64,000 nt of DNA from Naegleria gruberi (Eukaryota). Both the position numbers and the translations under genes were made by a program. Below are positions 153-60,700 of this stretch, piece after piece. The notes below the pieces were generated by a model. That model was not told the origin of the DNA. It ran no database searches and saw only the letters and a list, made by a program, of their open reading frames with translations. Numbering within the stretch: the stretch's first letter is position 1; each line of letters starts with the position of its first letter. The DNA lies in assembly GCA_000004985.1 (NCBI GenBank), contig GG738912.1; one strand, given 5' to 3'.

Positions 153-1820
153 TTAATACAAGAATTCTGCAAACAATGGCAAGTGATCAGAGCCATGATC
201 TTCATCAGGAATACTTGATTTTGGAACGAATTCCAAACAAGGTCCACTATCTTTCACTTGCAAACTTGGAGAATGCCATATGTAATCAACTATTGAATTT
301 CTACCAGTCGTTCCACAACAAGTCCAAAACTCCTGAACTGTATCATGACTCTTTTGCAGTGGAATACTTTCACAAGCTTCAATTAATTGTATTGGTTTCT
401 CGTGTGGACTTGTATTGAAATCTCCAAACCAAATAATACTTGTCTTTTGAGGATCAGCAATTTTTCCAATTTGATTCAAAATTTCATTCACTTGTTTTTC
501 TCTTGGGCCAGTATCACGAGGTTGGAATGTCAAATGACAATTTATAATACAGAAGAATCGACCTTTCACTCTATCCCTTGCAATAACGTATTGAAATACT
601 TCAGGATACTCCTTCACTAAGGTCTTTTCTCCCTTATTGAATATTTCAAATTTGGTATTTCTAATAGCAAGTATCAAGCCGTCCTTCTTTGGATAATTCT
701 TATACGAATGGTAAACTGAAAATCCTTCTTGTTCCAGAAAGAATTGAATTTGAGAAGCATGTTGATTATCAATTTCTTGTAGACCAATTATATCAAATCT
801 TCTCTCCTTCAAGACGGAAAATATTTTATACTTTCGTATTTCCCAATCCAGATATTTCTGATTGGTAATATTCGAATATCTACTCAAAGAAATGTAACAT
901 TGTGCCAAAATATTATAGGAACAGACCAGAATAGTTGGTGGAGGAAAGGACAGATTAGTTTGTGGTAGATTTTCTGATCTTGATCCAATGATGACCTGAT
1001 TATTCTGGACTGGAGAAACATGAAAATGTTGAAATTGCTTTCCAGAATTTTGAGGATTGTAAAAATTTTGAGGAGGATAATTTTGAATTGCTTGATTTGG
1101 ATAATTTGCAATTGGTTGTAAAATTTTGGGATTTGCATATTGAATTGGAGGAGGTTGATTTTGTTGGTGGTGTTGTTGATGACTATTAGAAACTGAACTA
1201 GTTCCTTTCTGATTATTACCATAATGAGCTTGATAGGTAGTTTGATTTTTGGCAGGTTTTTGACTACTTGACTGATTAGTAGAATCAATCTGCTTCTTCT
1301 TCTTCTCATTCACCCCATGACATTCCTTCCACACAGGTTCATCACTTCCATGTATAAAACAATATCTATGCCATCTTTCCTTATTATAGCATTTTTCACC
1401 ATATTTGCACGGATGATGAAACTTGAATTTGTGTGAAAATTCCTTATTTTCATCCAGTAATGATTTACAATTTAGTCCATACTTGCACGGATGATAAAAT
1501 TGAAAATTATGATTGGAATCATTGGTGAGTTTACAATTTTCCCAATTTGGACATCTCAAAGAAACTAATTGTTCATCATCAATCCCTTGAATTACATTCG
1601 AAACATCTGAAAAAAAGTGTTTGGCCTTTCGAATAATTTCTTTCGAAAAATTAGTTTCATGTTTAAAAGTTAAATTGTGTTTCTTATTGGTGAGGAGAGA
1701 ACAATCCTTCCCGAATGGACAGGTATGGATGAAATAATGTGTATGATTGGAGTCAAATAGATTATAACAATTTTCATCGTATTGACAAACTGTAAGTTTT
1801 GATGACATTTTTTTTGACAA
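153..1820 (-). CDS. Protein with N-terminal repeated PBZ-type (C-x5-C-x7-11-H-x5-H) zinc fingers and a C-terminal endonuclease/exonuclease/phosphatase (EEP; CCR4/nocturnin/Angel-like) nuclease domain
   Basis: The 555-aa ORF has about five repeats of C[KP][YF]GxxC...H...H (CPFGKDC..H..H; CKYGLNC; CKYGEKC). The C-terminal half carries the EEP motif series: LVCSYNIL, DIIGLQEID, INCHL, WFGDFN, VDYIW, GSDHLPL. No internal stop, so no intron is needed. Confidence 0.6.
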   Translation of the reverse strand: MSKKMSSKLTVCQYDENCYNLFDSNHTHYFIHTCPFGKDCSLLTNKKHNLTFKHETNFSKEIIRKAKHFFSDVSNVIQGIDDEQLVSLRCPNWENCKLTNDSNHNFQFYHPCKYGLNCKSLLDENKEFSHKFKFHHPCKYGEKCYNKERWHRYCFIHGSDEPVWKECHGVNEKKKKQIDSTNQSSSQKPAKNQTTYQAHYGNNQKGTSSVSNSHQQHHQQNQPPPIQYANPKILQPIANYPNQAIQNYPPQNFYNPQNSGKQFQHFHVSPVQNNQVIIGSRSENLPQTNLSFPPPTILVCSYNILAQCYISLSRYSNITNQKYLDWEIRKYKIFSVLKERRFDIIGLQEIDNQHASQIQFFLEQEGFSVYHSYKNYPKKDGLILAIRNTKFEIFNKGEKTLVKEYPEVFQYVIARDRVKGRFFCIINCHLTFQPRDTGPREKQVNEILNQIGKIADPQKTSIIWFGDFNTSPHEKPIQLIEACESIPLQKSHDTVQEFWTCCGTTGRNSIVDYIWHSPSLQVKDSGPCLEFVPKSSIPDEDHGSDHLPLFAEFLY

Positions 1821-1841
1821 GTGAATTCTGACAGATAAAAA

Positions 1842-2729
1842 ATGGTAGCATCAAGCGAAGAAGAACACGATCAGGAAACATCAACAACAGCTGCATCACT
1901 TTCGATATCAAGTGTTGTTGGTGGAATTAAAAATTTACTTGGTGAATTATTTGACAAGGCATCAACTGAAGAAATTGATCATGTAATTGCATTGACAGGA
2001 TTTAATGCATTGAAAGCTTATACATGTTTATTGGAAAAGTATCCTCCACCTACTGTTCCGGTGTCAAATGTTGTGGAACAGCAGCCATCTGTCAGTAGTC
2101 AAAATATTCCCCTGACACAACAATATTTTCAACCATCACAATTACCAATTCAACATGTTCATCAAAATATTGATCCGATGATGATGAGCCAATTTATGAT
2201 GCAAAATCAATTTATGCCTGTCGGATGTCAACAATTCAATCAAATTCCTCAATTTCAACAACAGCAACCTATGAATCAATCTACATGTATTTTGATGAAT
2301 GATGGAATGGGAAGACAATATTATATGATTTCTGATCCAAGTCAAATGTCAAGTAATAATTCAATGATGGTCAGCAGTGGAATTACAACTTCCAACCCAA
2401 CTCCTCAACCATCTTCTACATCAATTACAGCATCTACTTCAATTGCAACTCAAACATCTACTTCTAATACACCTGCCACATCAACGCAACCTGCCACCAC
2501 TCATGTCACCATTGACAAGAAGAAGAAATGTAAAGATTGGGACAAATGTACTCAAACTGGCGACCAAACACACGTTGAGAAATTCTTCCATCCATGCAGA
2601 AATGGATCTCATTGCAAGAATATTGAAAATGTCATTCATCAAAATAGATTTGTTCATCCTTGTAAAGATGGAAAGCAATGTAAGAAGAAGGATGATAATT
2701 TACACAATATTATGTTTACTCATAAATAA
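1842..2729 (+). CDS. UBA-like, Q/S/T-rich protein with two C-terminal PBZ-type zinc fingers
   Basis: 295-aa ORF with an A-rich start context. N-terminal EEIDHVIALTGFNALKAYTCLLEKY is UBA-like. It is followed by Q/M/S/T-rich low complexity. The C-terminus has CKDWDKC..H, PCRNGSHCKNIENVIHQNRFVH and PCKDGKQCKKKDDNLHNIMFTH. Confidence 0.5.
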   Translation: MVASSEEEHDQETSTTAASLSISSVVGGIKNLLGELFDKASTEEIDHVIALTGFNALKAYTCLLEKYPPPTVPVSNVVEQQPSVSSQNIPLTQQYFQPSQLPIQHVHQNIDPMMMSQFMMQNQFMPVGCQQFNQIPQFQQQQPMNQSTCILMNDGMGRQYYMISDPSQMSSNNSMMVSSGITTSNPTPQPSSTSITASTSIATQTSTSNTPATSTQPATTHVTIDKKKKCKDWDKCTQTGDQTHVEKFFHPCRNGSHCKNIENVIHQNRFVHPCKDGKQCKKKDDNLHNIMFTHK

Positions 2730-2796
2730 AATCAATGCTTTTGCTTGTCAAATTGTGAATTCACTTGTCAAATCATCGTTTTACCTGTCAAAAAAA

Positions 2797-4527
2797 ATGT
2801 TACCTTATCGTCCGCCTATTGTTCAGCCAATTCAACAGTTAATTCCGGTGTATTCCTACATGCCATCAACTTCATCATCGCCTGCCACTCCAACCAATGA
2901 TCAATCACATCAATCAACTGCCACAAATCAAAATAATCAGCAAAGTATTTGCAAATTTGGTCCAAATTGTCCCAACTATGACCAATGTACCTCTCTTCAT
3001 CCATGCCGTTACGGAGAAGATTGCAGAAGAATTTCAAGAGTTGTTAACAAGACTCAGAAATTACAAGACATTGTTCACTGTTCCAAATGTTTCCATATTT
3101 GTAAATGGGGTGAGAAGTGCAAATATTTGAATGATGAAGAACATGTAAATATGTTTCTTCACACGTGTACTAAATCAAATTGTAAAGATGAAGTTCACAA
3201 AGAGAGATTTAGACATAAATGCAAATATGGAAAAAATTGTCGTTCCTTAGATGGAAAATATGAAAATTGGGAACATTATGTCAAGTTTATTCATCCTAGG
3301 ACTAATGGAGTTATGAGACATGTAGAAAAACAAATGTATTATCTATTTTCTGAAATATCTAATGATGAAAGCAATTCAAAAACTGCTCAATCTGACATTC
3401 CTGGTTTGACACTTGTAAAGAAGAGTACACTCAAACCACAAGTGAAAGATAGAAAACGATCTGCCAAATGTGAAATTTCCACAATCGATGGTAAATCCAC
3501 AGAGTATTATTTCATTGGGTATGAGAAGGGTGCTGGAAATTCGTCAACTTCAAAAGTCGTTTGTTTTAAAGAGACTGGAAAGGGAGTTTTTGAAGGTCAT
3601 ATTAAGGTAGTTGCAGAATCTAGTTGTGTATTTGATGGAAATGCAAAGATTGAACAACCTTGGTATCATTCAAAAGTTAATGTTTATAGAAATACTGTCA
3701 TTAGTCAAGTATTTGATGAAATTTTGAAACAAGGTTTGAATGGAGTGAGCCCAAATGCTACCTATATCGATGTTATGAAATACATGATAGAACAGCATGA
3801 TATTCCAATATTTATTGTTGGAGGAGCTGTCAGAGATGTCATTCGAGAAGTGATTGTTGAAAAAAAGACCAATGCCTTACAAATTATGAATAATATTAAG
3901 GATATTGATATTGGATTTGGTTGTGATCCACAGACATTTCATGGACGCCTCACTCGAAAATATAAATCAGGTGTTCCAATTCCTGGACCTCGTGGACTAG
4001 TTCAAGTAGGAAGCTCCAATGGTTCTGATCTATTCCTGGAAGGTAAAGCCATTAATGGTTTAAATAATGATAATAAGAGTGTGAAAGCACAAATTGCTCA
4101 ATGTTATGGAACTAATCTGAGAGGAGAAAACATTTGTAGAGATTTCACATGTAATTCTCTTTGGTATGATCCAATCAATAAGTGCATTATTGATACTATT
4201 GGAAATGGGCAAGGAATTAAGGACGTAATTTCAAAAAATTTACGAATTCCTGTAAAACCAAGAGATTGGGAATTTTGGGTTTCTGGCAATCCAACAAAGT
4301 TGATGAGATTTTACAAATTCCTTTTGAAGGGATATTCTGCAGATGCCAAAACTAAATCATTCATAATTGAACAAGTTAAAAGTGGTAAATTTATTAGTGA
4401 TATGGAAATTAGAACTCAATACACAAAAGGAATTGGAAAAGCCAACAAAGCAAGGTTGGAGAATTTGTTGAGAAGTGATTTTGGTGATCAGTTTTACAAT
4501 AATTATTTCGCTAATCATATTAAATAA
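2797..4527 (+). CDS. PBZ-type zinc fingers fused to a class II (CCA-adding enzyme / poly(A) polymerase family) nucleotidyltransferase domain
   Basis: Start is ATG at 2797 (aaaaaaaATG), in frame with track ORF 2377..4527. The track's upstream extension overlaps gene 2 in another frame and I judge it spurious. Four PBZ-like fingers: CKFGPNC, CRYGEDC, CKWGEKC..H..H, CKYGKNC..H..H. The head domain shows IFIVGGAVRDV...KDIDIGF (GGxVRD + DxD) and ENICRDFTCNSLWYD (compare RRDFTINAL). The tail is RIPVKPRDWEFWVSGNPTKLMRFYKFL. Confidence 0.55.
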   Translation: MLPYRPPIVQPIQQLIPVYSYMPSTSSSPATPTNDQSHQSTATNQNNQQSICKFGPNCPNYDQCTSLHPCRYGEDCRRISRVVNKTQKLQDIVHCSKCFHICKWGEKCKYLNDEEHVNMFLHTCTKSNCKDEVHKERFRHKCKYGKNCRSLDGKYENWEHYVKFIHPRTNGVMRHVEKQMYYLFSEISNDESNSKTAQSDIPGLTLVKKSTLKPQVKDRKRSAKCEISTIDGKSTEYYFIGYEKGAGNSSTSKVVCFKETGKGVFEGHIKVVAESSCVFDGNAKIEQPWYHSKVNVYRNTVISQVFDEILKQGLNGVSPNATYIDVMKYMIEQHDIPIFIVGGAVRDVIREVIVEKKTNALQIMNNIKDIDIGFGCDPQTFHGRLTRKYKSGVPIPGPRGLVQVGSSNGSDLFLEGKAINGLNNDNKSVKAQIAQCYGTNLRGENICRDFTCNSLWYDPINKCIIDTIGNGQGIKDVISKNLRIPVKPRDWEFWVSGNPTKLMRFYKFLLKGYSADAKTKSFIIEQVKSGKFISDMEIRTQYTKGIGKANKARLENLLRSDFGDQFYNNYFANHIK

Positions 4528-4569
4528 CTAATGTAAATCAAAATTCAACACTTTTTAGGTCATTAACTT

Positions 4570-7500
4570 TTAATTTTTTCTATTCCTTTTTGGTTTAGAA
4601 ACAAATGTTGGGACTCTTGTGAGTGATTGTTTTTCATATTCAAACTCTATCGCGGAAAAATGGTTATATTGTTCACCAAAGTATCCTCTAGCTTCTTGGT
4701 TTCCATTTTTAGCAGCTTTCAACAACCAGAGTGTTCCTTGTGTTACATCTGTTTCACATAATAACTTTCCCAACGCCAACTCTGCATCTGAATTTTGTTG
4801 TTGAGCAGCTTTGAGCAACCATGAATGTGCAAGCTTAATGTTTTTCGGGACAACCTTATCAAGTCCATACATATAAATCATTCCAAGAGAATATTGTGCA
4901 TTTGAATTTCCTTGATTAGCAGATTTGCAATACCACTCAAAAGCAAGTGAATAATTGGGTGTTTGGATGATATTAAGTGTATGATGATAAATGCAAGCTA
5001 CTTCATATTGGGCTTCATTATTTCCAAGTTCAGCAGCTTTTTGATAGTAATCCCATGCTTTTTGATTATCCTTTAATTCTTTATAGAGATATCCTAAACG
5101 AAAGAGTGCTTCTGAATTCTTCACATCAGATTCTACTGCTTTTAGATACCATATAATGGCCTCATGTTTATCCAATAAAACACCATCACCCAGCTCATAC
5201 ATTTCTCCAATATCATATTGTGAATCAGAATCATTGAATTTTGTAGATGCTTCCAAATACAATTCGTGTGCTTCTTGATAATTACCCTTATTAAAAAACA
5301 TTCTAGCCACATTTCTAAGAGCTTCAATATGCGTACTTATTATTTCAGCTTCTCTAAAAATAAGTTTTCTATATTCTTCATCAATTTCCATTCTTTTTAA
5401 ATTCATATTATTACCTAATATAATGTGTTCGCCAGAAACTAAGATATCTGTAGTAATAGTAGAAAGCTTTTGCTTGGATAAATCGAGTGCTTTTTGGTAA
5501 AGTTTAAATGCCAACAATTCATTACTTGATATTCCATTATCACCATCTTCAAGCATTGATGCAACATAATTAATGGCAGGAATATAGTTACTATCATATA
5601 CTTTCTTAAATAGCTCAAAAGTTTCGGTATTGTTTGTTTTGGAATAATGAATAGCTTGTTGGAATAATTTCTCCCCTTTATCATTACTAACTTCCAAAAT
5701 CATATCCAATTGACTTGCAGAATATAAAACTCCATATTCCACGCCTTCCATTTCTAAAGTATTAACGTTCATCTCATATTGGTTTCTTCTTTGAGCATCT
5801 TCTATAAAATAAGAAATCAATTTTCTTTTTTGAGAATCATTATTTAACACTAAAGAGTAGAGAGTGTAATTATTTTGCTCTGATTTCTCCATTTCTAAAA
5901 TGTGAGAGGAGAAGTTTGGGATTAGAATAAATCTGCTTTTGTCTTTGATTAAATGGCCCATTTTTAAACCAAATTGTGTGACAGATTTTAGAGAGGAATT
6001 TAGAGAAATAATATGCACCTCCTTGTCCTTAAGAAATAATACAAAAAATCTCCAAAAAAGGTCCATCATTTCCGAGACCATTTGAACTCGCTGTTTCTTT
6101 TTGTTAATCTGTTTGAAAATAGTTTGAAATAATTCCTTATAAATATCTTCCATCCTTTTTTGATAATCATTTGGTTTCGTGTTGTTTTTGAAAATATTTG
6201 CTATCTTGTACTTGATAAATGTGATTAAATGTTGTCTGTCATCTACACGTGCTATTTGAGAATTTGGGTCTTTAAACTCTAATTTTTGAGAAACTAACAA
6301 TTGCATACTATCATATAATTTACCAACTAGAGAAACACTGCGCCTCAATGGACCATGTTTGTTCTTGTGGTAGTGTGGAAAGCCAGGGAATTTTTCAAGT
6401 AGTTCTAAATCTTGTGCATTTACAGCAACACTGTAGTTGCCTTTTTTGGGAGCGTCGATAGCCCTGTTGATGAGAGTACATAATCTTTCCATGTTATTCC
6501 AGTATTTTCGTGACCATTGATTTCCATAAAAATCAGCAAACAAATGACGAATTCCAATCAAGTCTTTGAATATATCAGGATCGAATGATCGTGTCTCATT
6601 GTAGTCGTCATCAAAAGATCCTGGATCGAACTCTACTAATGATTCTACTAGTTCGTTATCCCAACATGCAAAATATTGATCTCCATCTAGATCAGATCCT
6701 GCAATCATATTTGTTATTGGTCTACTTCCTTTTGTAGGAAAAACAATAACATCGTAAAGAAAATTCAATTCAGGAATGTTGACTGCCTCTAATTTTCTCA
6801 GGTCACCACGATGTAAGCATGGCTCTTTAGTGACAATCACAGTATTCTCAATTACATTCTTCTTCTTTGGATCATTTAGAGAGGAAACTTGAATAAATAT
6901 TTGACCTTCTTTGAGTACTCCGAAAGGATCTGCTATTCCGTACAACCTTCTAGAACTGTAACAAGGAATTCTCAAGGAGAGTATTTGGTTTCTGTAGGGG
7001 CCTGTCAGGAAAGCAAGCTTTTTGCTTTTTAGAATGGAAAGAACGTTAAGAGAGGCATAGTCTCCTTGTTTTACGTACTGATCAAAAACCTTGTCAATGT
7101 CCGATTCTGAAATATAGTTTTTCATCAAATTTTCAATATGTTTACAGGCCTTTTGGTTTAGTATTTCGAATATCTTTCCTTGTTTTGTTTCATCTTCACA
7201 CCCTTCTAAAATGTGCATAATTGTCGAATTGATTCTAGCAAAATCACAGGGGCTTGAATAACCTACGATGCATAAATTATTAATTATATCATCATCAGTG
7301 TTTGGGTGTTCAATTTTCATCATTGATTTCCTTAGCACTAAATGGTGACCATACACCTTTTCCGCATTTGGATGGATGTAAACCATGCCTTTGGCTCCTC
7401 TAAATCTTATTTGGTATGCACAGGGAAGATATTCATTGACTAGAAACTCTACTCCATCATTTTCTTCGTAGATACCATCTTCATCCATCGATTGTTTGCT

Positions 7501-8724
7501 CTGGTATTTCAATAAATTTTTAGATTTACGAACAATTTCATAAACTTTCATAGCCAATTCAAGAGAAATAAATCCACATCCATCGGTGAAAAGTCCCTCA
7601 TCATTAATAACAGTGTATTCTGAAACTCCAATAGTAGGAATAACAGGAGTATTAAATAAAGCCAGTCTTAAACTTTGCTTTAATTTGTTATTCTCAAAAT
7701 AAAGATCCCTGTTCAATGTATCTGGAATGGCCCATGTTTTTACATCATGTATTGATAGGGAAGAATTGTTTGGAAGTTTGGAAAGATCAGGACACATGTA
7801 AATAAATCGATAAGAATGCATTCCACTCGTATTTTGACACAGTTTCTGGAATGTAAATCCAGCAATATGTAAAGGCTCTTCTCTTTCTATATATGGCTCT
7901 ATTAGCCTGAATGATTGGTTATCCATTAACACTCTGCTAATGTGCTTTTGGTCTTTCATTAATTTCAATGTTTCCTCATCGAATTTTCCTTCCTTGAATT
8001 GATTTAAATATTGTCTCAATAATACTATATCTCCATGATCCTCTGATTTTGATTCCATAGCCACTTGATCCTTCAATTCAATATTATTTAAAATTTCAGG
8101 GTGCTCTCCAGTAGATTCAAGAATCATTTGAGATTTGAAACCCATTCTCAAAAAGCTAAATCCAACATTCAACACTGTATTCACACCAAATTTTTGTCTA
8201 AACCTACTCTGTAGCCATCTATCTTGTTGTGAGCTGTTGAATCGAATGGCAAGAATGGGTGATATCTTTGGTTTGTAAAAACAATATAAGGTTGCTGTTC
8301 TAGTCCTAAACATTGTCTCTGATTCGTCCAATTCTTCTGTTGTTTGCTTACTTGGAGATGAAAGGTTTAAATTCTGATGATCCTCTTCCTTCTCTGTTAT
8401 TGTTGCTAACAACCACCGATGAAGAGCCTCTAATCCTATCGGATAGGCAATCACTGCCATCCTAGAAACTCTCTTTAATATTTCATAGCGATCGACGAAG
8501 GACATTCCACAATACTTTTCCCCTCTCACATTTTTGAAATTAAATTCCAAATATTTGGTACAATCATCAAAATTTCTAATGATCGGAATGGATTCAATCA
8601 TGTAATAAGTTGCCAATAAATCCTTTACGTAATTTTCATCTTGTCTATTCATAAACTTTAACTCTTCAAGTTGTTGAATCTTTTCAAGCTTTGAGAACCC
8701 AGAAACAAAAGACAATACGGACAT
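4570..8724 (-). CDS. Eukaryotic cellular RNA-dependent RNA polymerase (RDR family) with C-terminal Sel1-like (SLR/TPR-like) repeats
   Basis: 1384-aa uninterrupted ORF starting aaaaaaaATG. It carries the RDR catalytic signature: VIVTKEPCLHRGDLRKLEAVNIPELNFLYDVIVFPTKGSRPITNMIAGSDLDGDQYFACWD. Other RDR blocks are present: DGCGFISLELA, RFRGAKGMVY, LRKSMMKIEHP, YRNQILSLRIPCYSSRRLYGIADPFGVL. The C-terminal ~300 aa are tandem Sel1-like units (AxxWYxKAAxxGNxxAQYxLGxxY...). Confidence 0.75.
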   Translation of the reverse strand: MSVLSFVSGFSKLEKIQQLEELKFMNRQDENYVKDLLATYYMIESIPIIRNFDDCTKYLEFNFKNVRGEKYCGMSFVDRYEILKRVSRMAVIAYPIGLEALHRWLLATITEKEEDHQNLNLSSPSKQTTEELDESETMFRTRTATLYCFYKPKISPILAIRFNSSQQDRWLQSRFRQKFGVNTVLNVGFSFLRMGFKSQMILESTGEHPEILNNIELKDQVAMESKSEDHGDIVLLRQYLNQFKEGKFDEETLKLMKDQKHISRVLMDNQSFRLIEPYIEREEPLHIAGFTFQKLCQNTSGMHSYRFIYMCPDLSKLPNNSSLSIHDVKTWAIPDTLNRDLYFENNKLKQSLRLALFNTPVIPTIGVSEYTVINDEGLFTDGCGFISLELAMKVYEIVRKSKNLLKYQSKQSMDEDGIYEENDGVEFLVNEYLPCAYQIRFRGAKGMVYIHPNAEKVYGHHLVLRKSMMKIEHPNTDDDIINNLCIVGYSSPCDFARINSTIMHILEGCEDETKQGKIFEILNQKACKHIENLMKNYISESDIDKVFDQYVKQGDYASLNVLSILKSKKLAFLTGPYRNQILSLRIPCYSSRRLYGIADPFGVLKEGQIFIQVSSLNDPKKKNVIENTVIVTKEPCLHRGDLRKLEAVNIPELNFLYDVIVFPTKGSRPITNMIAGSDLDGDQYFACWDNELVESLVEFDPGSFDDDYNETRSFDPDIFKDLIGIRHLFADFYGNQWSRKYWNNMERLCTLINRAIDAPKKGNYSVAVNAQDLELLEKFPGFPHYHKNKHGPLRRSVSLVGKLYDSMQLLVSQKLEFKDPNSQIARVDDRQHLITFIKYKIANIFKNNTKPNDYQKRMEDIYKELFQTIFKQINKKKQRVQMVSEMMDLFWRFFVLFLKDKEVHIISLNSSLKSVTQFGLKMGHLIKDKSRFILIPNFSSHILEMEKSEQNNYTLYSLVLNNDSQKRKLISYFIEDAQRRNQYEMNVNTLEMEGVEYGVLYSASQLDMILEVSNDKGEKLFQQAIHYSKTNNTETFELFKKVYDSNYIPAINYVASMLEDGDNGISSNELLAFKLYQKALDLSKQKLSTITTDILVSGEHIILGNNMNLKRMEIDEEYRKLIFREAEIISTHIEALRNVARMFFNKGNYQEAHELYLEASTKFNDSDSQYDIGEMYELGDGVLLDKHEAIIWYLKAVESDVKNSEALFRLGYLYKELKDNQKAWDYYQKAAELGNNEAQYEVACIYHHTLNIIQTPNYSLAFEWYCKSANQGNSNAQYSLGMIYMYGLDKVVPKNIKLAHSWLLKAAQQQNSDAELALGKLLCETDVTQGTLWLLKAAKNGNQEARGYFGEQYNHFSAIEFEYEKQSLTRVPTFVSKPKRNRKN

Positions 8725-8906: not shown

Positions 8907-10094
8907 TTACCACCAAAATACTATGTCAGTATTAGTCTGTTTGGAAAATTCATCACTAATTTTGTTTCCACTCACGTCTAATAATTGTAAATTCTTCATT
9001 TGTGTGATTGCCTTAAGTCCTTCATCCGTTATTTCATTGTTATTTACATATAAAATAGATAATTTCTCTAATTCACTAATGTAGTGTGCTCCTTCGTCTT
9101 GAATATCATTGAGTGAAATATCTAGTTCAGTTACGCGTTGCATTTTGCTGATAAATTTTGCTCCAGTTGGGCCAATTTCGCAATTATTGATCAAAAGTGT
9201 TGTCAATTGTTCAAGTTCACCGATTGATTCTGCTCCTTGTTGTCCAATTAAATTGAAACCAACATTGATAAATGTCAAGCCTTTCAGTTGGCTAATTGAA
9301 TTGGCTCCTTCCTCTCCAATTCCATTACTACTAACATCTAGTTTGGTTAAATTCTTCATATGGCTTATTGAATACATTCCTTCATCACCAATGTTATTGC
9401 TGCCAATGAAAAGCTCTCTTAATTGATCTAATTGTGCAATGAGTTCTGCTCCTTGTATTCCAAGATCATTATCATTAATTCTGAGAGAGGTTAAATTTCT
9501 CATCCCACTAACTACCTCCACATCCAAACATTTGAGCTTAGTGTATGACATGTCCAGAATAGTCAATTGCTTCATATCTTTAATTTTACAAACTGATTCA
9601 AAACTAAATCTATTTCCAGAAACATTAAGTTCTTTCAATTGCTTCATTTGTGAAATTACACTGATTTCTCTATCAGAAATTTTACAAAACACAACATGAA
9701 GCCTCCTTAAATGCTCGCATCGTGCAATGCTCTCTATTGCATCAATAGTTATTTCATTCTTGTTATTAATAACAAGAGAATTCAGCCTTTGTGCCATTTC
9801 AATTCCATTCCAAAATCTTTCATTCTGAATTCTTGCTCTGACTTCAATATTCGTAAAATATGATAACCATTCAAAATGTTCAATATTAGAATGTCTATTA
9901 ATTATTACTATTGAAAGAATCGATCGTTCCCTAATTACATTCATCCATTGTTTAGAAATTAATAAACAATTCTTCAATAGGAATTTGTGATCCGCGTCTA
10001 CAAAGGAGAGAATTTCAAAAATTACATCATCAGAAAATAATTCTTGATGTTGTGATTTGATGCGGGTGGAATCTTCTACGTGATTGTTGAGCAT
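8907..10094 (-). CDS. F-box-like / RI-type leucine-rich-repeat protein
   Basis: N-terminus DDVIFEILSFVDADHKFLLKNCLLISKQWMNVI is F-box-like. It is followed by about 10 RI-type 24-28 aa LRRs (LxxLxxLxISxNxIGxEGAxxISxLxx). Start is A-rich (aaaaaaaaATG at 10094). Confidence 0.6.
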   Translation of the reverse strand: MLNNHVEDSTRIKSQHQELFSDDVIFEILSFVDADHKFLLKNCLLISKQWMNVIRERSILSIVIINRHSNIEHFEWLSYFTNIEVRARIQNERFWNGIEMAQRLNSLVINNKNEITIDAIESIARCEHLRRLHVVFCKISDREISVISQMKQLKELNVSGNRFSFESVCKIKDMKQLTILDMSYTKLKCLDVEVVSGMRNLTSLRINDNDLGIQGAELIAQLDQLRELFIGSNNIGDEGMYSISHMKNLTKLDVSSNGIGEEGANSISQLKGLTFINVGFNLIGQQGAESIGELEQLTTLLINNCEIGPTGAKFISKMQRVTELDISLNDIQDEGAHYISELEKLSILYVNNNEITDEGLKAITQMKNLQLLDVSGNKISDEFSKQTNTDIVFWW

Positions 10095-11432
10095 TTTTTT
10101 TTAATTTTTTTAAAAAAACATTAATGGAAATTTCAGAGACCAAATAACTTGAACGATCAAAGGCAGAATCTACAACTGAGAATGACTTGGTTTGAGAATC
10201 GTATCCAGTGGCCAAAACGAAATGTTCAGTCTTCTTTCCAGGTGGTTTGATTAGTTTCAAGATGACCATTCTTCCTTCACACAAGTTTCGAATAGTTACA
10301 GACATGTCAGTGGTTATCCCTGAGAATTTCACACCAAATTGTTTGTTAATGGATGCCCAGATAAATAAGTTTCCATCCTTGAAACCACGATTTTTCTTCA
10401 ACCATTCGTTCATTTCTTTTGGTGTCCATTCGGTTCTTCCCAAACCTTTCAATCCAGAAGTAATGGCCGAAAGAAGACAACCAGCTTTACAAATTGTTGA
10501 ACTTCCACTTCCTAATTTGAGAGATCCCCATCTTGTATCACATTGCTTAAAGACTGTGAATTGAGTATGAACATATCCTGGATAACATTCCTTTTTTGGA
10601 GGATTAGGTTTTATGGATATTTCTGGTTTTGGAGGAATTGGAATAGGTCTTGGAGATTCTTGTGGAATTGGAACAGGATTAGGTCTAGGAGAAGGTCTAG
10701 GATCTGGATGTGGTTTAGGAGAAGGAACTGGTGGCACAGGTTTTGGTGATTCATGTGGCACTGGTGGAACAGGTTTTGGTGAAGGGATTGGATTTGGAGG
10801 AATTGGCTTTGGTGAAGGAATTGGAATTGGTGGAGTTGGAGGATTCGGTTGGGGTGGATTTGGAATTGGTGGGACTGGATTTGGACTGGAGGAATTGGAA
10901 TAGGTCTTGGTCCTCTACAACATGGTCTGGCACAGTTGTTTCCTTGTTGTGGAATTTTCAAATCCAAATTGACATTGACGTTTTGTCTACTTCCTCCATT
11001 GGAAGATGCTGAGCTGGAGGAAGAAGCAGAGGCAGATGCAGGTTGTTGGATAATGATTGTTTGAGGAGGTGGTATAATTGGTTTAATCATTGGAACATTG
11101 AGAATGATATTTTGAGGAGGGAAGAAACACTTAGGTTTCTTGCAAGGTTTAGTTGGTTTTCTAATTGGTTTCTTACATGGTTTCTTTGGTTTCTTTCCAA
11201 TCACATGGACAATAAATCCAGGACTCTTGTTATTTCTACACTTGAGTCTTCTAATATTGGATCTAATCTTTCGAGATTTGGACGAAATTCTTTCAGTGTC
11301 CAAAGTAATCACTTGGACACTTCTTCTTTCATGATTTGCTGAGTCGCTTGCCAACACAGCAGCACTAAAGAAACAAATTAACAATAGTGTGGCCAACAAG
11401 AAAGCTGTTTTCACAATCAAATTGCTGAACAT
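10030..11432 (-). CDS. Secreted Lys/Pro-rich protein with a C-terminal papain-fold C39-like (BtrH/YvpB-type, Cys-His-Asp) peptidase domain; reading frame interrupted near 10885
   Basis: Start ATG 11432 (tcaaaaaaATG) gives a signal peptide MFSNLIVKTAFLLATLLLICFFSAAVLAS. Then come basic KKPxKP repeats and Pro-rich sequence (PRPIPIPP), which continues in a second frame from about 10905 (SPNPVPPIPNPPQPNPP...PKPHPDPRPSP). The C39-like domain follows: QCDTRWGS..TICKAGCLLSAITSGL...HFVLATGYD...VVDSAFD. The two frames meet at ccaGTcca (about 10885), consistent with a 1-nt indel. The C-terminal end overlaps the 5' end of the next gene and may be a read-through. Confidence 0.4.
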
Positions 11433-11650: not shown

Positions 11651-12788
11651 TTATTGGTTGGAAATATTAGAGCATGTGGACAAACAGCGATTATCATCCC
11701 CATCTTCGTTGATAGTTGTCATTGGTGTGGAAGTTTGAATCTGTAGTTGACCTTCCTCAACATTAACTGAACTTGAAATATTACTATTTGCATTATCATG
11801 ATCAATTAAATGTTTCAATACCACCTTTCTGATTTGGAAGAGCACAAACCATGATAATCTTATCATGACCAATACCAAGGAAATCTTGATAGTTTCTCCT
11901 GGTAAGAATGGAACTAAACCCTTCTCAATTCCCTTAGAGAGTCCAAGATTTGGCACTCCGAATGCCAACCATCCACATCCAAATACAAATGTAACAGCAT
12001 TCGATAGACACAACATGAGGAGATTCATCATGATGGTACGATCTGAAGCCATTTTGGAGCAAAACCAACCACAAATCAGTGCACTAAAGACAAAACCAAT
12101 GAGGAAACCACTACTACTCGACTGGAACAAGACCAGATTTCCATGTGTTTGATTGGAAAACCAAGGAATATCAAGAACAGAACCACAGAATAAATAGAGG
12201 AGAATACTGAGTGGAGCAATGACAAAACCAGTTAAGGAGCCAAGCCACAAGACACCAAAAGTTTGTCCAGTGATTGGAACGGCACTAATGGAGGAAGGGA
12301 GTGAAATGGAAATTTGAGCACAAACTCCCATCAAGCATGCTCCAAAGATAACCAACAACATGTTGGAAATGAAGGGAACGACAGCATTGGAAACGATTGT
12401 TTTCAAAAGTGGATGGCATGTGCCAAGTTTCAAATGCCACTTTTTTACAAGATCAAATCTTCTCTCACTCTTGATAAGAATGAGATCAAAAACTGAACGC
12501 ATGAGTGCCATGTATGCATCCAAGAATGAAGGATACCAACTTGGGTTGACCAAGATTTTCACAGGAGGTTCCTCTTCAACCATTGGTGTAGAAGTGCTGC
12601 CAATTCTACCAATTGAGTGGTCTTGTCCTCTTCTTCTTCTAATCTGTGATATATTTTCAGATTCAATGGTGAGATGTTGCTGAGAAACTTTATATCCAAG
12701 CTTTCTTTCAATTTCCTTGCCCAAATCATCAATTCTGCTTGACGATTCAAATGACTCACCAAGTGGGGACACTACAAGATATTGCATG
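11651..12788 (-). CDS. BioY-family (biotin ECF-transporter S-component-like) membrane protein with a eukaryote-style N-terminal extension
   Basis: Strong BioY blocks: CAQISISLPSSISAVPITGQTFGVLWLGSLTG, ILLYLFCGSVLDIPWFSN..GNLVLFQSSSSGFLIGFVFSALICGWF, FGCGWLAFGVPNLGLSKGIEKGLVPFLPGETIKISLVLVM. Likely ATG at 12788 (aaaaaaacaccATG), with about 130 aa N-terminal to the BioY core. Confidence 0.6.
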
Positions 12789-13160
12789 GTGTTTTTTTTG
12801 TATTGTTTTTCTCTCAAGATCTTGTGAGGAGAGAACTCGAAGCTCAATAGAATTTGATTCTTCTAAGTGTTTGGGGAGACCGAAATATTCGGAAGTTTTG
12901 AAAAGATCCGTTTAATGTGTAAGCAATTCTGAACCTTCTTTAAGGATTTTTAATAATCACGAACGACTCCCCGAATACAATATGGTTTCACACATTGTAA
13001 ATTTAACAGAGTTACGAATATTAAATTATAATTAATCTAATTAATAATAAAGCATCAATATATTGCTAACTAGATTGCTAATCAATCATGCATGGATTTG
13101 AAACTAGATCCAATATCTATCACGTAAATATTCAAAACTCATTAATAAAACATGAATTGT

Positions 13161-14876
13161 TTAATAACGTGAGGTGGTGAAGCCATCATCCTCATTGAGC
13201 ATTCTAAGCTTGTACTTTTGATATTCTTTTCCCATTTTGAATCTAGTGTAGGTATCTTTCATGACATGTTCAATTTCTGTGAGTGCTTCCTTGTAGAGGA
13301 GTACTACATTGGCAACATTATCAAAATCAGTGTCAAATTCATCTTTGAATTTGGCCAATAATTTGCTTGGAAGATTTAACTGGTAGACTGAAGTGGATGG
13401 AATGAATAATTGGTAGAGTTTCAGAGCTAGGGCTCTTTGTTCTTCTTCTGATAAAAAGATTGAATTCAAAAATTTCAAAACTTCCTCATAAAAGATAATA
13501 TTCTCTTGTGAATATTCATCTTTGGAGAAGGTTTTGAATTGTTCTCTCATGTAGGTGTCTCTTAAAAATTCTGAGAGTGAGGATCTACGAGATGTGGAAG
13601 GAAGATCAGCAGATGGAGTTTTTTTAGCAAAACTGAATCTTCTTGGAGATTCGAATAACTCTTCATCTGAATCTTTAGAGTTAGGGATTGGGTTTTCATT
13701 TCTGTTAAGTACAGAAAATTGGATTTCAAATGGTTCACTAATTTCAACAACTGTTGATTTTGCAGAATTAATTTCTGATTCGTGATTCATTAGATTGTTA
13801 AAATTCAACTTTGGAATAATGAGCTGATTGAGCATAAGGGTATTTCTTCTACTCTTTCGGTTAATGTTGAATGAATGGGATTTGTTAGGAGGTGTTAAAT
13901 TATCCACAATGGGACTACTTGAGCTAGAACTAGTACTAGCTCTGGCTGATCTGATATAACCAATTGGGAGTTCATGTTCATCATATTCATCTTCACTTTC
14001 CTCTGCTTCTTTAACTTCTTTACTTTCGTGAACTTTCTTCAAGTTAAGTGATAAGGCAAGTGAAATTGACTTTCTGAAAGAATTGGAATGTGAACTATTA
14101 GCTTCCAATTTGGAAGTTGGGGTTGATGGTGTTTGGATTTTGGCCGAGTAATCATTTCTAAAATCAGACTCTGCTTGTTTCAAATTTTTACAAAGTCCAT
14201 AAAATGAATTATTGGAATCTTTGAATTGTTTCTTGTGAGTCATGTGGAAAATAAATTTGTAATTCAACAAGATTTGACAAAAGCATTGACTGAATAGTCT
14301 AATCTCATCGGATTGAGAAAGTCCAAACCCATTATTTGACTCCACAATTGTCTCTGCCTTAATGATCTGACTAATCAATAATGTTGAATCCTTTCCTGTG
14401 AAACTTTCCTTAAAAGACTTGAGTAAATATCTATTATCTTTCACTGAAATTTCAGAGTGGAATTGTTTAGCAAGGTCAATAATAAATTCCACGGAAAGAA
14501 CCTTCTTTGATAGGCAAAAATCCACAAAGCTAGTCAAATGGTTTCTCTTTCTTTTCAATAATTGATTGGATGAATGTTTTCTTGGTGAAAGAGGTGTCAT
14601 TGGACTTGTCATTGGTGACTCAACAATCAATGGATTACTGGCAGATGATTTTGGAGAAGTATTTGGAGATGAGAAGAGAGAATCGTCATCATCCTTCAAA
14701 TAACCACAAAAATCCTCATAAAATCTCACAAGACAATTATGATGACTTGTTGATTGGTCGATCAAATCTGTCAATTTTGTAACAACTGACAATTCATTGG
14801 TTGCAGAGTCCTGAGCAGGATCTTCCTCATGCATTTGTGTTCCGTTATTCTTGTTTTTGTTCATTCTCTGTATCAC
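13161..14876 (-). CDS. RGS (regulator of G-protein signalling) domain protein, S/T-rich
   Basis: C-terminal RGS box: LRDTYMREQFKTFSKDEYSQENIIFYEEVLKF...LALKLYQLFI...ANVVLLYKEALTEIEHVMKDTYTRF. The N-terminal part may hold a second, degenerate RGS-like region. Confidence 0.6.
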   Translation of the reverse strand: MIQRMNKNKNNGTQMHEEDPAQDSATNELSVVTKLTDLIDQSTSHHNCLVRFYEDFCGYLKDDDDSLFSSPNTSPKSSASNPLIVESPMTSPMTPLSPRKHSSNQLLKRKRNHLTSFVDFCLSKKVLSVEFIIDLAKQFHSEISVKDNRYLLKSFKESFTGKDSTLLISQIIKAETIVESNNGFGLSQSDEIRLFSQCFCQILLNYKFIFHMTHKKQFKDSNNSFYGLCKNLKQAESDFRNDYSAKIQTPSTPTSKLEANSSHSNSFRKSISLALSLNLKKVHESKEVKEAEESEDEYDEHELPIGYIRSARASTSSSSSSPIVDNLTPPNKSHSFNINRKSRRNTLMLNQLIIPKLNFNNLMNHESEINSAKSTVVEISEPFEIQFSVLNRNENPIPNSKDSDEELFESPRRFSFAKKTPSADLPSTSRRSSLSEFLRDTYMREQFKTFSKDEYSQENIIFYEEVLKFLNSIFLSEEEQRALALKLYQLFIPSTSVYQLNLPSKLLAKFKDEFDTDFDNVANVVLLYKEALTEIEHVMKDTYTRFKMGKEYQKYKLRMLNEDDGFTTSRY

Positions 14877-57778: not shown

Positions 57779-60700
57779 NNNNNNNNNNNNNNNNNNNNNN
57801 NNNNNNNNNNNNNNNNNNNNNNNNNNNNNNNNNNNNNNNNNNNNNNNNNNNNNNNNNNNNNNNNNNNNNNNNNNNNNNNNNNNNNNNNNNNNNNNNNNNN
57901 NNNNNNNNNNNNNNNNNNNNNNNNNNNNNNNNNNNNNNNNNNNNNNNNNNNNNNNNNNNNNNNNNNNNNNNNNNNNNNNNNNNNNNNNNNNNNNNNNNNN
58001 NNNNNNNNNNNNNNNNNNNNNNNNNNNNNNNNNNNNNNNNNNNNNNNNNNNNNNNNNNNNNNNNNNNNNNNNNNNNNNNNNNNNNNNNNNNNNNNNNNNN
58101 NNNNNNNNNNNNNNNNNNNNNNNNNNNNNNNNNNNNNNNNNNNNNNNNNNNNNNNNNNNNNNNNNNNNNNNNNNNNNNNNNNNNNNNNNNNNNNNNNNNN
58201 NNNNNNNNNNNNNNNNNNNNNNNNNNNNNNNNNNNNNNNNNNNNNNNNNNNNNNNNNNNNNNNNNNNNNNNNNNNNNNNNNNNNNNNNNNNNNNNNNNNN
58301 NNNNNNNNNNNNNNNNNNNNNNNNNNNNNNNNNNNNNNNNNNNNNNNNNNNNNNNNNNNNNNNNNNNNNNNNNNNNNNNNNNNNNNNNNNNNNNNNNNNN
58401 NNNNNNNNNNNNNNNNNNNNNNNNNNNNNNNNNNNNNNNNNNNNNNNNNNNNNNNNNNNNNNNNNNNNNNNNNNNNNNNNNNNNNNNNNNNNNNNNNNNN
58501 NNNNNNNNNNNNNNNNNNNNNNNNNNNNNNNNNNNNNNNNNNNNNNNNNNNNNNNNNNNNNNNNNNNNNNNNNNNNNNNNNNNNNNNNNNNNNNNNNNNN
58601 NNNNNNNNNNNNNNNNNNNNNNNNNNNNNNNNNNNNNNNNNNNNNNNNNNNNNNNNNNNNNNNNNNNNNNNNNNNNNNNNNNNNNNNNNNNNNNNNNNNN
58701 NNNNNNNNNNNNNNNNNNNNNNNNNNNNNNNNNNNNNNNNNNNNNNNNNNNNNNNNNNNNNNNNNNNNNNNNNNNNNNNNNNNNNNNNNNNNNNNNNNNN
58801 NNNNNNNNNNNNNNNNNNNNNNNNNNNNNNNNNNNNNNNNNNNNNNNNNNNNNNNNNNNNNNNNNNNNNNNNNNNNNNNNNNNNNNNNNNNNNNNNNNNN
58901 NNNNNNNNNNNNNNNNNNNNNNNNNNNNNNNNNNNNNNNNNNNNNNNNNNNNNNNNNNNNNNNNNNNNNNNNNNNNNNNNNNNNNNNNNNNNNNNNNNNN
59001 NNNNNNNNNNNNNNNNNNNNNNNNNNNNNNNNNNNNNNNNNNNNNNNNNNNNNNNNNNNNNNNNNNNNNNNNNNNNNNNNNNNNNNNNNNNNNNNNNNNN
59101 NNNNNNNNNNNNNNNNNNNNNNNNNNNNNNNNNNNNNNNNNNNNNNNNNNNNNNNNNNNNNNNNNNNNNNNNNNNNNNNNNNNNNNNNNNNNNNNNNNNN
59201 NNNNNNNNNNNNNNNNNNNNNNNNNNNNNNNNNNNNNNNNNNNNNNNNNNNNNNNNNNNNNNNNNNNNNNNNNNNNNNNNNNNNNNNNNNNNNNNNNNNN
59301 NNNNNNNNNNNNNNNNNNNNNNNNNNNNNNNNNNNNNNNNNNNNNNNNNNNNNNNNNNNNNNNNNNNNNNNNNNNNNNNNNNNNNNNNNNNNNNNNNNNN
59401 NNNNNNNNNNNNNNNNNNNNNNNNNNNNNNNNNNNNNNNNNNNNNNNNNNNNNNNNNNNNNNNNNNNNNNNNNNNNNNNNNNNNNNNNNNNNNNNNNNNN
59501 NNNNNNNNNNNNNNNNNNNNNNNNNNNNNNNNNNNNNNNNNNNNNNNNNNNNNNNNNNNNNNNNNNNNNNNNNNNNNNNNNNNNNNNNNNNNNNNNNNNN
59601 NNNNNNNNNNNNNNNNNNNNNNNNNNNNNNNNNNNNNNNNNNNNNNNNNNNNNNNNNNNNNNNNNNNNNNNNNNNNNNNNNNNNNNNNNNNNNNNNNNNN
59701 NNNNNNNNNNNNNNNNNNNNNNNNNNNNNNNNNNNNNNNNNNNNNNNNNNNNNNNNNNNNNNNNNNNNNNNNNNNNNNNNNNNNNNNNNNNNNNNNNNNN
59801 NNNNNNNNNNNNNNNNNNNNNNNNNNNNNNNNNNNNNNNNNNNNNNNNNNNNNNNNNNNNNNNNNNNNNNNNNNNNNNNNNNNNNNNNNNNNNNNNNNNN
59901 NNNNNNNNNNNNNNNNNNNNNNNNNNNNNNNNNNNNNNNNNNNNNNNNNNNNNNNNNNNNNNNNNNNNNNNNNNNNNNNNNNNNNNNNNNNNNNNNNNNN
60001 NNNNNNNNNNNNNNNNNNNNNNNNNNNNNNNNNNNNNNNNNNNNNNNNNNNNNNNNNNNNNNNNNNNNNNNNNNNNNNNNNNNNNNNNNNNNNNNNNNNN
60101 NNNNNNNNNNNNNNNNNNNNNNNNNNNNNNNNNNNNNNNNNNNNNNNNNNNNNNNNNNNNNNNNNNNNNNNNNNNNNNNNNNNNNNNNNNNNNNNNNNNN
60201 NNNNNNNNNNNNNNNNNNNNNNNNNNNNNNNNNNNNNNNNNNNNNNNNNNNNNNNNNNNNNNNNNNNNNNNNNNNNNNNNNNNNNNNNNNNNNNNNNNNN
60301 NNNNNNNNNNNNNNNNNNNNNNNNNNNNNNNNNNNNNNNNNNNNNNNNNNNNNNNNNNNNNNNNNNNNNNNNNNNNNNNNNNNNNNNNNNNNNNNNNNNN
60401 NNNNNNNNNNNNNNNNNNNNNNNNNNNNNNNNNNNNNNNNNNNNNNNNNNNNNNNNNNNNNNNNNNNNNNNNNNNNNNNNNNNNNNNNNNNNNNNNNNNN
60501 NNNNNNNNNNNNNNNNNNNNNNNNNNNNNNNNNNNNNNNNNNNNNNNNNNNNNNNNNNNNNNNNNNNNNNNNNNNNNNNNNNNNNNNNNNNNNNNNNNNN
60601 NNNNNNNNNNNNNNNNNNNNNNNNNNNNNNNNNNNNNNNNNNNNNNNNNNNNNNNNNNNNNNNNNNNNNNNNNNNNNNNNNNNNNNNNNNNNNNNNNNNN

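Follow-up and report, generated by a model that had tools for sequence, protein, structure and literature searches.

A conserved cluster of PBZ-type finger genes in Naegleria gruberi and its probable link to ADP-ribosylation

The question raised by this locus is what four tightly spaced genes of Naegleria gruberi have in common. They lie within positions 153-8724 of a 64,000-nucleotide stretch of contig GG738912.1 (assembly GCA_000004985.1), which is called the window here, and they encode an EEP nuclease, a Q-rich finger protein (the adaptor), a class II nucleotidyltransferase (NTase) and a cellular RNA-dependent RNA polymerase (RdRP). An earlier interpretation made from the letters alone (the sequence-only reading) had proposed that all four form a tailing and trimming module of RNA silencing. 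Our best reading of the sequences is instead that the EEP, adaptor and NTase genes (153-4527) represent, in N. gruberi, a conserved PBZ-finger cluster that is found in Heterolobosea with relatives in other protists, and that the other recurring members of this cluster are finger-bearing PARP12/15-like PARPs with a putative H-Y-E triad. In full, the cluster would be a module for 3'-end trimming and tailing that is recruited by poly(ADP-ribose) (PAR), a statement to which we give a probability of roughly 0.55. The narrower proposal, that the set of finger proteins is linked to ADP-ribosylation, appears very probable from the sequences, because three independent lines of evidence support it: the identity of the finger, neighbourhoods that are shuffled but kept, and domain fusions. 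The RdRP is probably a neighbour specific to N. gruberi and lies outside the module.

The finger-bearing genes and the identity of the finger

All four predicted genes were confirmed within 153-8724, in a window of about 33% GC whose long open reading frames are tightly packed. Pfam scans located the domains where the sequence-only reading had placed them, save for a UBA domain in the adaptor that is considered below. The genes and their finger arrays are as follows.

153-1808, minus strand: PBZ-finger-tagged EEP nuclease/phosphatase of the CCR4/ANGEL/Nocturnin clade, 551 amino acids from the ATG at 1808 (PF03372, E 1.2e-16)
183-920, minus strand: EEP catalytic domain (Pfam stretch, amino acids 301-546 of a 555-amino-acid reading frame)
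1350-1787, minus strand: five PBZ-type C2H2 fingers of the EEP protein, arranged 3 + 2 (regular-expression scan, match to the APLF PBZ profile, PF10283 as top Pfam family)
1842-2729, plus strand: adaptor-like protein with a short N-terminal helical module, a Q-rich linker and three C-terminal PBZ-type fingers at 2529-2723 (open reading frame and regular-expression scan)
2797-4527, plus strand: PBZ-finger-tagged class II NTase of a distinct subfamily, 576 amino acids (PF01743, family alignment, AlphaFold2 (AF2) model with Foldseek, family census)
2950-3294, plus strand: NTase finger array of two strict and about three degenerate PBZ-type units (regular-expression scan, translation read directly)
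4570-8724, minus strand: cellular RdRP (domain at 6307-7881, DLDGD) with C-terminal Sel1/TPR repeats at about 4690-5325 (PF05183, E 1.8e-78; Sel1, E 4.8e-36)

A six-frame regular-expression scan of the window for the strict unit C-x5-C-x5-12-H-x5-H returned 10 units in 64 kb, all of them within 1350-3294 (five in the EEP gene, three in the adaptor and two in the NTase). Since none occurs in the other approximately 60 kb, the RdRP gene included, the clustering of the finger goes far beyond chance. These counts bear out the earlier claim that the first three genes carry one and the same C-x5-C...H-x5-H finger.

A profile of this finger was built from 57 distinct units of the window and orthologous loci. 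The resulting consensus, HxCxxGxxCx7HxxxFxHP, has four invariant zinc ligands and agrees with the PBZ spacing C-x5-C-x6-8-H-x5-H with CxxGxxC ... HxxxF/YxH; the PBZ consensus of Ahel and colleagues from 2008 reportedly has the same spacing and signature residues. When the units were scanned singly, 26 of the 57 matched PF10283 (best E 1.5e-4), which was by far the most frequent Pfam family. The best PDB match of the profile was the tandem PBZ of APLF (2kqb, 2kuo; E 4.7e-5). Both APLF fingers, PBZ1 and PBZ2, align with the profile end to end and with all four ligands, whereas TTP-type CCCH fingers align over the CxxGxxC half only. Because APLF is matched over two whole fingers and CCCH fingers only over the first half, the window fingers are, as judged by sequence, PBZ-type, and they would be expected to bind PAR. 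Two aromatic positions, which we take to contact PAR in APLF, were read in the 10 strict window fingers: the first is Tyr, Phe or Trp in half of them and the second is Tyr in 2 of the 10. A homologue search with a double-finger alignment gave five candidates and no hits.

The window proteins resemble the known PBZ proteins (APLF, CHFR, SNM1A, Dictyostelium repair proteins and PARPs) in the spacing given above, in CxxG and in the aromatic residue two positions before the last His. They are alike as well in their tandem arrays, in the presence of the finger inside PARPs and in the predicted tethering of an effector enzyme to PAR. They differ in that Naegleria-type arrays are longer (3-7 fingers, up to 15) and have a one-residue H-P-C linker, and in their cargo, a class II NTase and a CCR4/ANGEL-type EEP enzyme, a pairing that is absent from the literature searched.

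The open reading frame of the EEP protein extends beyond its ATG to a TTG at 1820 (555 amino acids). PF03372 is matched at 61.6 bits against a cutoff of 24.5. The nearest solved relatives are ANGEL2 (E 1.5e-10) and Nocturnin (E 1.3e-9), with weaker matches to Ccr4/CNOT6 (Ccr4, E 4.6e-5), and the motifs SYN, LQE, GDFN and SDHLP align with the catalytic Asn/Glu/Asp/His motifs of the PDB relatives. The enzyme therefore resembles the CCR4/Nocturnin/ANGEL1-2/PDE12 clade in its best matches and catalytic motifs and departs from it in its five N-terminal PBZ-type fingers and Q/N-rich linker and in its lack of the LRR that Ccr4 has. Its substrate class may be that of a deadenylase, a 2',3'-cyclic phosphatase or an NADP(H) phosphatase. 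The orthologues of N. lovaniensis, N. fowleri and Willaertia have 5-6 fingers, and a relative with 2-3 fingers was found on an environmental contig.

The identity of the finger and of the EEP protein bear together on one alternative, a DNA-damage module of the Dictyostelium/APLF type. PAR at breaks would then recruit the EEP protein as a 3'-end cleaner and the NTase as a DNA terminal transferase. The EEP superfamily does include APE1 and TDP2, and the window protein has a weak NCBIfam match to exonuclease III (28 bits against a cutoff of 99). Nevertheless, it is nearest to the RNA- and dinucleotide-directed CCR4/ANGEL/Nocturnin clade and not to APE or TDP2, the characterised class II NTases are all RNA-specific, and the PARPs of the cluster are PARP12/14/15-like and not PARP1-3-like sensors of DNA breaks. 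We consider a DNA-damage role quite unlikely on these grounds, even though most PBZ proteins described to date act in the DNA-damage response and the repair proteins of Dictyostelium show an expansion of PBZ (PMC4245714).

No Pfam family was matched by the adaptor. Its fingers best match the C-terminal fingers of proteins at 4723-6246 of an N. lovaniensis locus (L002; 62% over 72 amino acids) and at 12447-13931 of a Willaertia locus (L003; 54%). Between the adaptor's N-terminal module and the N-termini of the cluster PARPs there is a weak alignment, and a profile of five homologous segments found nothing significant in the PDB. The UBA identity that the sequence-only reading gave to this module was not confirmed by the Pfam or the PDB search, nor was a CUE identity, and we retain it as a shared helical module only. 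The adaptor and the NTase were also considered as a single spliced gene. This model was rejected on the basis of a stop codon, a 67-bp promoter-like spacer and the reversed order of the two genes in Willaertia.

The nucleotidyltransferase family

The true ATG of the NTase is at 2797. Two domains follow its finger array.

3382-3711, plus strand: family-specific SH3-like beta-barrel before the NTase head, amino acids 196-305
3754-4524, plus strand: class II NTase head and neck (GGAVRD, DIDIGFG, LEGKAING, ENICRDFTCN, LRIPV, GNPTKLMRFYKF), without body or tail (alignment, AF2 model, Foldseek, NCBIfam)

PF01743 is matched at E 2.9e-8 (34.5 bits against a cutoff of 23) and is the only NTase-associated family, RNA-binding families included, in the Pfam scan. 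GGAVRD and DIDIGF are invariant or nearly so in the family alignment. The AF2 model has a pLDDT of about 90 over residues 200-576, and its best Foldseek matches are class II CCA-, A- and CC-adding enzymes (E 4e-8; 240-285 alignment columns at 15-20% identity), those of T. maritima, A. aeolicus and human among them. These results agree with the earlier assignment of the enzyme to the class II (CCA/PAP) type and not to the Cid1 type. Likeness to the CCA-adding, CC-/A-adding and PcnB enzymes extends to the GGxVRD and DxD head, to the motif-D-like ENICRD and to a neck helix, GNPxKLxRYxKF, that is similar to DPLRxLRAxRF. Unlike those enzymes, the window family has an N-terminal SH3-like barrel and PAR-reader modules, and its motif B lacks the canonical Arg as read from the alignment. 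Only about 90 residues follow the head, and the tRNA-binding body and tail domains are absent.

Several scores support the conclusion that the NTase is not an ordinary CCA-adding enzyme. In NCBIfam it reaches 21.6 bits against the 438.8-bit cutoff of the CCA equivalog (TIGR02692) and 33 against 306 for PcnB. A phmmer search of the PDB gave no match to any solved structure at E 0.01, the human and Arabidopsis CCA enzymes included. A profile search of 1.84 billion representative proteins returned 60 members at E<=1e-30, 345 at E<=1e-10 and only 1266 at E<=1e-3, and because of this limited membership we treat the family as a distinct subfamily.

The domain partners of the family provide the second link to ADP-ribosylation. 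PBZ-type fingers are present in at least 13 members, and P0023 of the malawimonad Gefionella okellyi combines 15 PBZ-like fingers with the NTase. P0032 joins the NTase to WWE, another PAR reader, and three members (P0068, P0080 and P0117) carry a U-box, a PARP catalytic domain and the NTase in one polypeptide. These couplings to PBZ, WWE or PARP domains are spread over several deep-branching protist lineages. Alignment demonstrates that the WWE and U-box-PARP fusions have the same barrel and family motifs. A PAR reader fused to an enzyme is also the arrangement of RNF146 (WWE-RING) and CHFR (PBZ-RING), with which these four fusion proteins may be compared; in the present case the effector is a nucleotidyltransferase or a nuclease and not a ubiquitin ligase. 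P0080 is encoded at 8444-10660 of L011, a Logan contig of 54% GC whose other reading frames have no Pfam match.

The same fusions are the main attraction of an alternative in which the NTase and the EEP protein act on ADP-ribose polymers or ADP-ribosylated ends, one as writer and the other as eraser, so that the PARP product is edited or capped. A free ribose hydroxyl of ADP-ribose or PAR would receive a nucleotide from the NTase, the terminal adenosine there being chemically like A76 of tRNA, and the EEP protein would remove this nucleotide or cleave PAR. Such chemistry is consistent with the fusions, in which three protein clusters join the NTase to a PARP catalytic domain and a further one joins it to WWE, a reader of iso-ADP-ribose, as well as with the missing tRNA-binding domains of the NTase and the putative H-Y-E triad of the cluster PARPs. 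An EEP enzyme directed at adenine dinucleotides has a precedent in Nocturnin, a relative of the window protein and an NADP(H) 2'-phosphatase. However, we know of no class II NTase with a non-nucleic-acid primer, and the argument proceeds purely by inference. We judge this alternative unlikely. If it held, the pair would add and remove a nucleotide cap or tail on PAR or on ADP-ribosylated nucleic-acid ends, a previously unrecognised branch of ADP-ribosylation that would amount to a nucleotidylation code written on ADP-ribose.

Further relatives of the NTase show other domain contexts. Six distant ones (P0093, P0108, P0109, P0119, P0127 and P0142; E about 1e-20; approximately 780-1,720 amino acids) combine an InPase domain (PF18823) with the PolyA_pol head, and P0127 has Hint/intein domains in addition. 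P0065 is 7,704 amino acids long and contains at least four GGxVRD motifs. A metagenome scan for NTase relatives found one weak locus (L013), and a comparison with the BFVD fold library matched phage tRNA nucleotidyltransferases only.

Conserved neighbourhoods, PARP partners and the polymerase

Orthologues of the NTase were found in N. lovaniensis (P0009), N. fowleri (P0012) and Willaertia magna (P0008, P0011 and P0013), together with environmental relatives. Their loci are arranged as follows, with finger numbers in brackets.

L002, N. lovaniensis: adaptor relative (3), PARP (6), fingerless second EEP, NTase (4), EEP (6), PARP (3), zf-UBP-SIR2
L004, N. fowleri: arrangement as in L002
L003, Willaertia: NTase, then adaptor relative
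L009, Willaertia: EEP (6), PARP (7), NTase paralogue P0011
L005-L007, environmental, 30% GC: NTase (36% identical) head-to-head with a fingered EEP
L008 and L012, environmental: fingered NTase

Eight independent NTase loci were compared, this window among them. A fingered EEP gene is present in the same locus in five of the eight, an adaptor is nearby in four (for N. fowleri only its fingers were located) and a PARP in three, so that the retention of EEP, adaptor and/or PARP beside the NTase in relatives upholds the finger set of the sequence-only reading. In L002 the adaptor relative, two PARPs, the NTase and the EEP protein are all fingered and lie within 11 kb. Gene order and orientation vary between N. 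gruberi, the N. lovaniensis/N. fowleri pair, Willaertia and the environmental contig, and the same families stay neighbours throughout.

The neighbouring PARPs of N. lovaniensis, N. fowleri and Willaertia contain the PBZ-type finger themselves. They are closest to PARP15/12/14, and a reading of their sequences places Glu at the third triad position (QEIMFYD, TEFVIFD). The H-Y-E triad to which this Glu would belong suggests chain elongation in the Naegleria PARPs. The sequence-only reading had allowed that the fingers bind nucleic acid instead of PAR; this is now disfavoured, as finger-bearing PARPs are their constant partners and in other lineages the NTase shares a polypeptide with WWE or a PARP catalytic domain. 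PBZ has been reported to co-evolve strictly with PARPs, and PBZ-PARP fusions were already known (PMC4245714).

The intergenic regions of the window contain a further shared feature.

1813-1828, plus strand: candidate shared promoter element TTTGACAAGTGAATTC, between the divergent EEP and adaptor genes (33-bp intergenic region; exact 16-mer)
2757-2772, minus strand: second copy of the 16-mer, with palindromic core GTGAATTCAC, 25 bp upstream of the NTase ATG (exact 16-mer)

The TTTGACAAGTGAATTC 16-mer occurs exactly twice in the window, in the 33-bp EEP/adaptor region and in the 67-bp region upstream of the NTase, and its palindromic core is flanked by TTGTCAAA repeats. A shared word of at least 13 letters between these two promoters arose in 1 of 20,000 shuffles. 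The related TGACAAGAATTC is located about 30-40 bp upstream of the NTase ATG in N. lovaniensis (L002 9962) and N. fowleri (L004 9968). The region upstream of the RdRP gene lacks the 16-mer and has only 6-7-mers in common with either promoter. We propose the 16-mer as a candidate cis-regulatory element of the cluster.

These neighbourhoods also address the possibility that no functional link exists, in which case local duplication or exon shuffling would have carried the fingers from one gene to the next and the adjacency would be neutral. Tandem fingers are modular, which makes local spread feasible, and the synteny of the closely related N. fowleri and N. lovaniensis is partly inherited. Yet the families remain neighbours in varied order and orientation across two genera and an unrelated environmental contig of 30% GC, the NTase has been fused independently to WWE and to PARP, and the promoters have the 16-mer in common. 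A neutral origin appears hardly credible to us.

The RdRP behaves differently. Its 1384 amino acids are 100% identical to P0001, a predicted protein of N. gruberi. Database searches with it matched N. gruberi paralogues, two environmental proteins and distant animal sequences only, and returned nothing from N. fowleri, N. lovaniensis or Willaertia, although all three are represented in the same database by the proteins of the NTase search. An RdRP adjoins the NTase in one of the eight NTase loci, namely this window, and in none of the other seven. The two loci found for RdRP relatives have unrelated neighbours, and neither includes an NTase, an EEP gene or fingers. The combination of RdRP and C-terminal Sel1/TPR repeats defines a small family (P0001-P0005) with three N. 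gruberi paralogues; a TLDc domain is also present in the paralogue P0003 and in the environmental P0004.

These observations speak against the model in which RdRP, NTase and EEP protein constitute a tailing and trimming complex like RDRC, with fingers that bind RNA. Known RdRP complexes, namely S. pombe RDRC (Rdp1-Cid12-Hrr1), Tetrahymena Rdr1-Rdn1/2 and Neurospora QDE-1 with QIP, join a polymerase to an NTase and a 3' exonuclease, and the N. gruberi genes for RdRP, NTase and 3'-end nuclease likewise lie side by side. The RdRP has an intact DLDGD catalytic motif and is located 42 bp from the NTase stop codon, and the first half of the finger is similar to CCCH RNA-binding fingers. In contrast to those complexes, the NTase is class II and not of the Cid1/Trf4 type, the association is not conserved, and no Argonaute, Dicer or helicase was identified by Pfam among the 20 other open reading frames scanned, which extend to position 51752 of the window. 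The RdRP has neither finger nor promoter 16-mer, and no RdRP match came from the three relatives that all keep the finger cluster. The silencing model is consequently highly improbable. What probably stands of the proposed co-functioning and possibly co-regulated set is the EEP protein, the finger protein and the NTase, by virtue of their common finger and 16-mer, but not the membership of the RdRP.

The flanks of the related loci contain other genes. A second, fingerless CCR4-like EEP gene lies directly upstream of the NTase in L002 (8327-9922, plus strand) and L004 (8959-9915, plus strand) and has no counterpart in the window. The fingered PARP of Willaertia at L009 7551-9467 has an in-frame stop in its catalytic domain, for which a pseudogene, an unannotated intron or a sequencing error are possible explanations. 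A fingerless protein with zf-UBP and SIR2 domains, another NAD+ consumer, is located at one flank of the cluster (L002 15507-17009, L004 15464-17115). Its membership in the module is possible; it is adjacent in two sister species only and has no finger. A UBA1-type ubiquitin E1, also fingerless, flanks the cluster at L002 1520-4657 and L004 2194-5325. A ubiquitin connection is hinted at because the E1 and zf-UBP genes flank the cluster and a U-box is part of the PARP-NTase fusions. Both Willaertia NTase loci are flanked by GBP-type GTPases (L003 1659-20952; L009 1-1060), and L003 has the mirrored order ADH, GBP, NTase, adaptor, RCC1/BTB, GBP, ADH. These flanks may reflect a segmental duplication or the context of an immunity island.

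An immunity or conflict system comparable to OAS-PDE12 with antiviral PARPs was weighed as well. In such a system the NTase would produce a nucleotide signal or mark RNA of foreign origin, the EEP protein would degrade it and the PARPs would act as effectors. The cluster PARPs are nearest to the vertebrate PARP12/14/15 and ZAP clade, whose members are antiviral, and the GBP neighbours, the paralogue turnover and patchy distribution of the NTase family and its distant fusions to InPase, a domain type described in phage polyvalent proteins (PMC5512222), may be viewed in the same light. Against this, PADLOC gave no match for any of the four window proteins, no NTase relative was found in viral contigs and the GBP adjacency is confined to one species. 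Class II NTases, moreover, are not known as signal synthases. An immune function is very unlikely in our assessment.

Proposed mechanism

For the preferred reading, a PAR-recruited module of 3'-end trimming and tailing, we envisage the following sequence of events. Where stress or damage occurs, PARPs would synthesise oligo- or poly(ADP-ribose). Tandem PBZ fingers would read this polymer and thereby bring adaptor, EEP enzyme and NTase together at the site. The EEP enzyme, being ANGEL2-, Nocturnin- and CCR4-like, would trim or 'heal' the 3' end by removing nucleotides or a 3' or 2',3'-cyclic phosphate. The NTase would then add untemplated nucleotides to the freed 3'-OH, with the SH3-like barrel in place of the tRNA-binding body and tail. 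In this order the EEP protein would presumably act before the NTase. The most likely substrate would be RNA 3' ends, because of the precedents of the ANGEL/CCR4 enzymes and the class II NTases; DNA ends or PAR itself are possible.

There is a partial parallel in RNA-end ADP-ribosylation, which is carried out by PARP10/11/15 and TRPT1, and in the healing of 3' ends by ANGEL2 before re-extension or ligation. The cluster PARPs are nearest to PARP15/12/14, and an ANGEL-like phosphatase with a CCA-type NTase would form a heal-and-extend pair. The Naegleria system differs from this parallel in the putative H-Y-E triad of its PARPs and in the lack of an RNA ligase in the loci.

Several observations weigh against the proposed module. 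No result points to its substrate. No PARP gene was found in the 64-kb window, of which the 20 reading frames mentioned above were scanned and which barely extends to the left of the EEP gene. The environmental loci L008 and L012 are without EEP or PARP in the available sequence (less than 10 kb for L008), and N. lovaniensis and N. fowleri, as close relatives, provide approximately one observation of synteny. The CxxGxxC half of the finger resembles CCCH RNA-binding fingers too. On whether the finger scores as PBZ, which the sequence-only reading had listed among the points that could refute its proposal, the result is divided: formally, and unlike in known PBZ proteins, no scanned finger stretch of the window reaches the PF10283 gathering score (best 15 bits against 22.7), whereas the finger profile matches the PBZs of APLF first. 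Finally, two motif residues are missing from the U-box-PARP-NTase fusions, namely the Asp of GGxVRD and the Arg of the CRD motif. All three keep DxD and read GGAV(R/V)H in the NTase, and because of the two losses the NTase of these fusions may be a binding module and not an enzyme.

Each domain of the cluster is known and PAR-reader-tethered effectors are a known kind; the combination is not in the literature searched. That literature contained no class II NTase that is coupled to PBZ, WWE or PARP and shares a cluster with an ANGEL/CCR4-type enzyme tagged with PBZ, and searches on Naegleria PBZ, the CCA-adding enzyme and N. fowleri RdRP or RNA interference yielded no account of the module. The known cargoes of PAR readers are ligases, scaffolds and DNA nucleases, and an NTase paired with a CCR4/ANGEL-type enzyme would be a new class of effector. 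If the proposal is correct, ADP-ribosylation would be tied either to the healing of 3' ends and the untemplated addition of nucleotides or to changes made to PAR itself. Eukaryotes seldom conserve gene clusters, and the present one is backed by independent PBZ, WWE and U-box-PARP fusions; the enzymes form a small, tractable family that is open to direct tests. The locus also carries a caution for annotation, in that an RdRP beside an NTase and a nuclease should not alone be taken to indicate an RNA interference module.

The remainder of the window has a mixed content. Positions 57779-62307 are 4529 N in a row, an assembly gap, and the five long open reading frames called across it are artefacts for this reason. 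Among the 20 other frames up to 51752, Pfam identified LRR/F-box, C39-like peptidase, BioY, RGS, Hsp70, TLC, L6e, P450, rhomboid and PEMT families. Two of these genes, beyond the RdRP and LRR genes and apparently unrelated to the cluster, are a proline-rich protein with a Peptidase_C39-like domain (10030-10761, minus strand) and a homologue of the BioY family of bacterial-type biotin transporters (11651-12847, minus strand).

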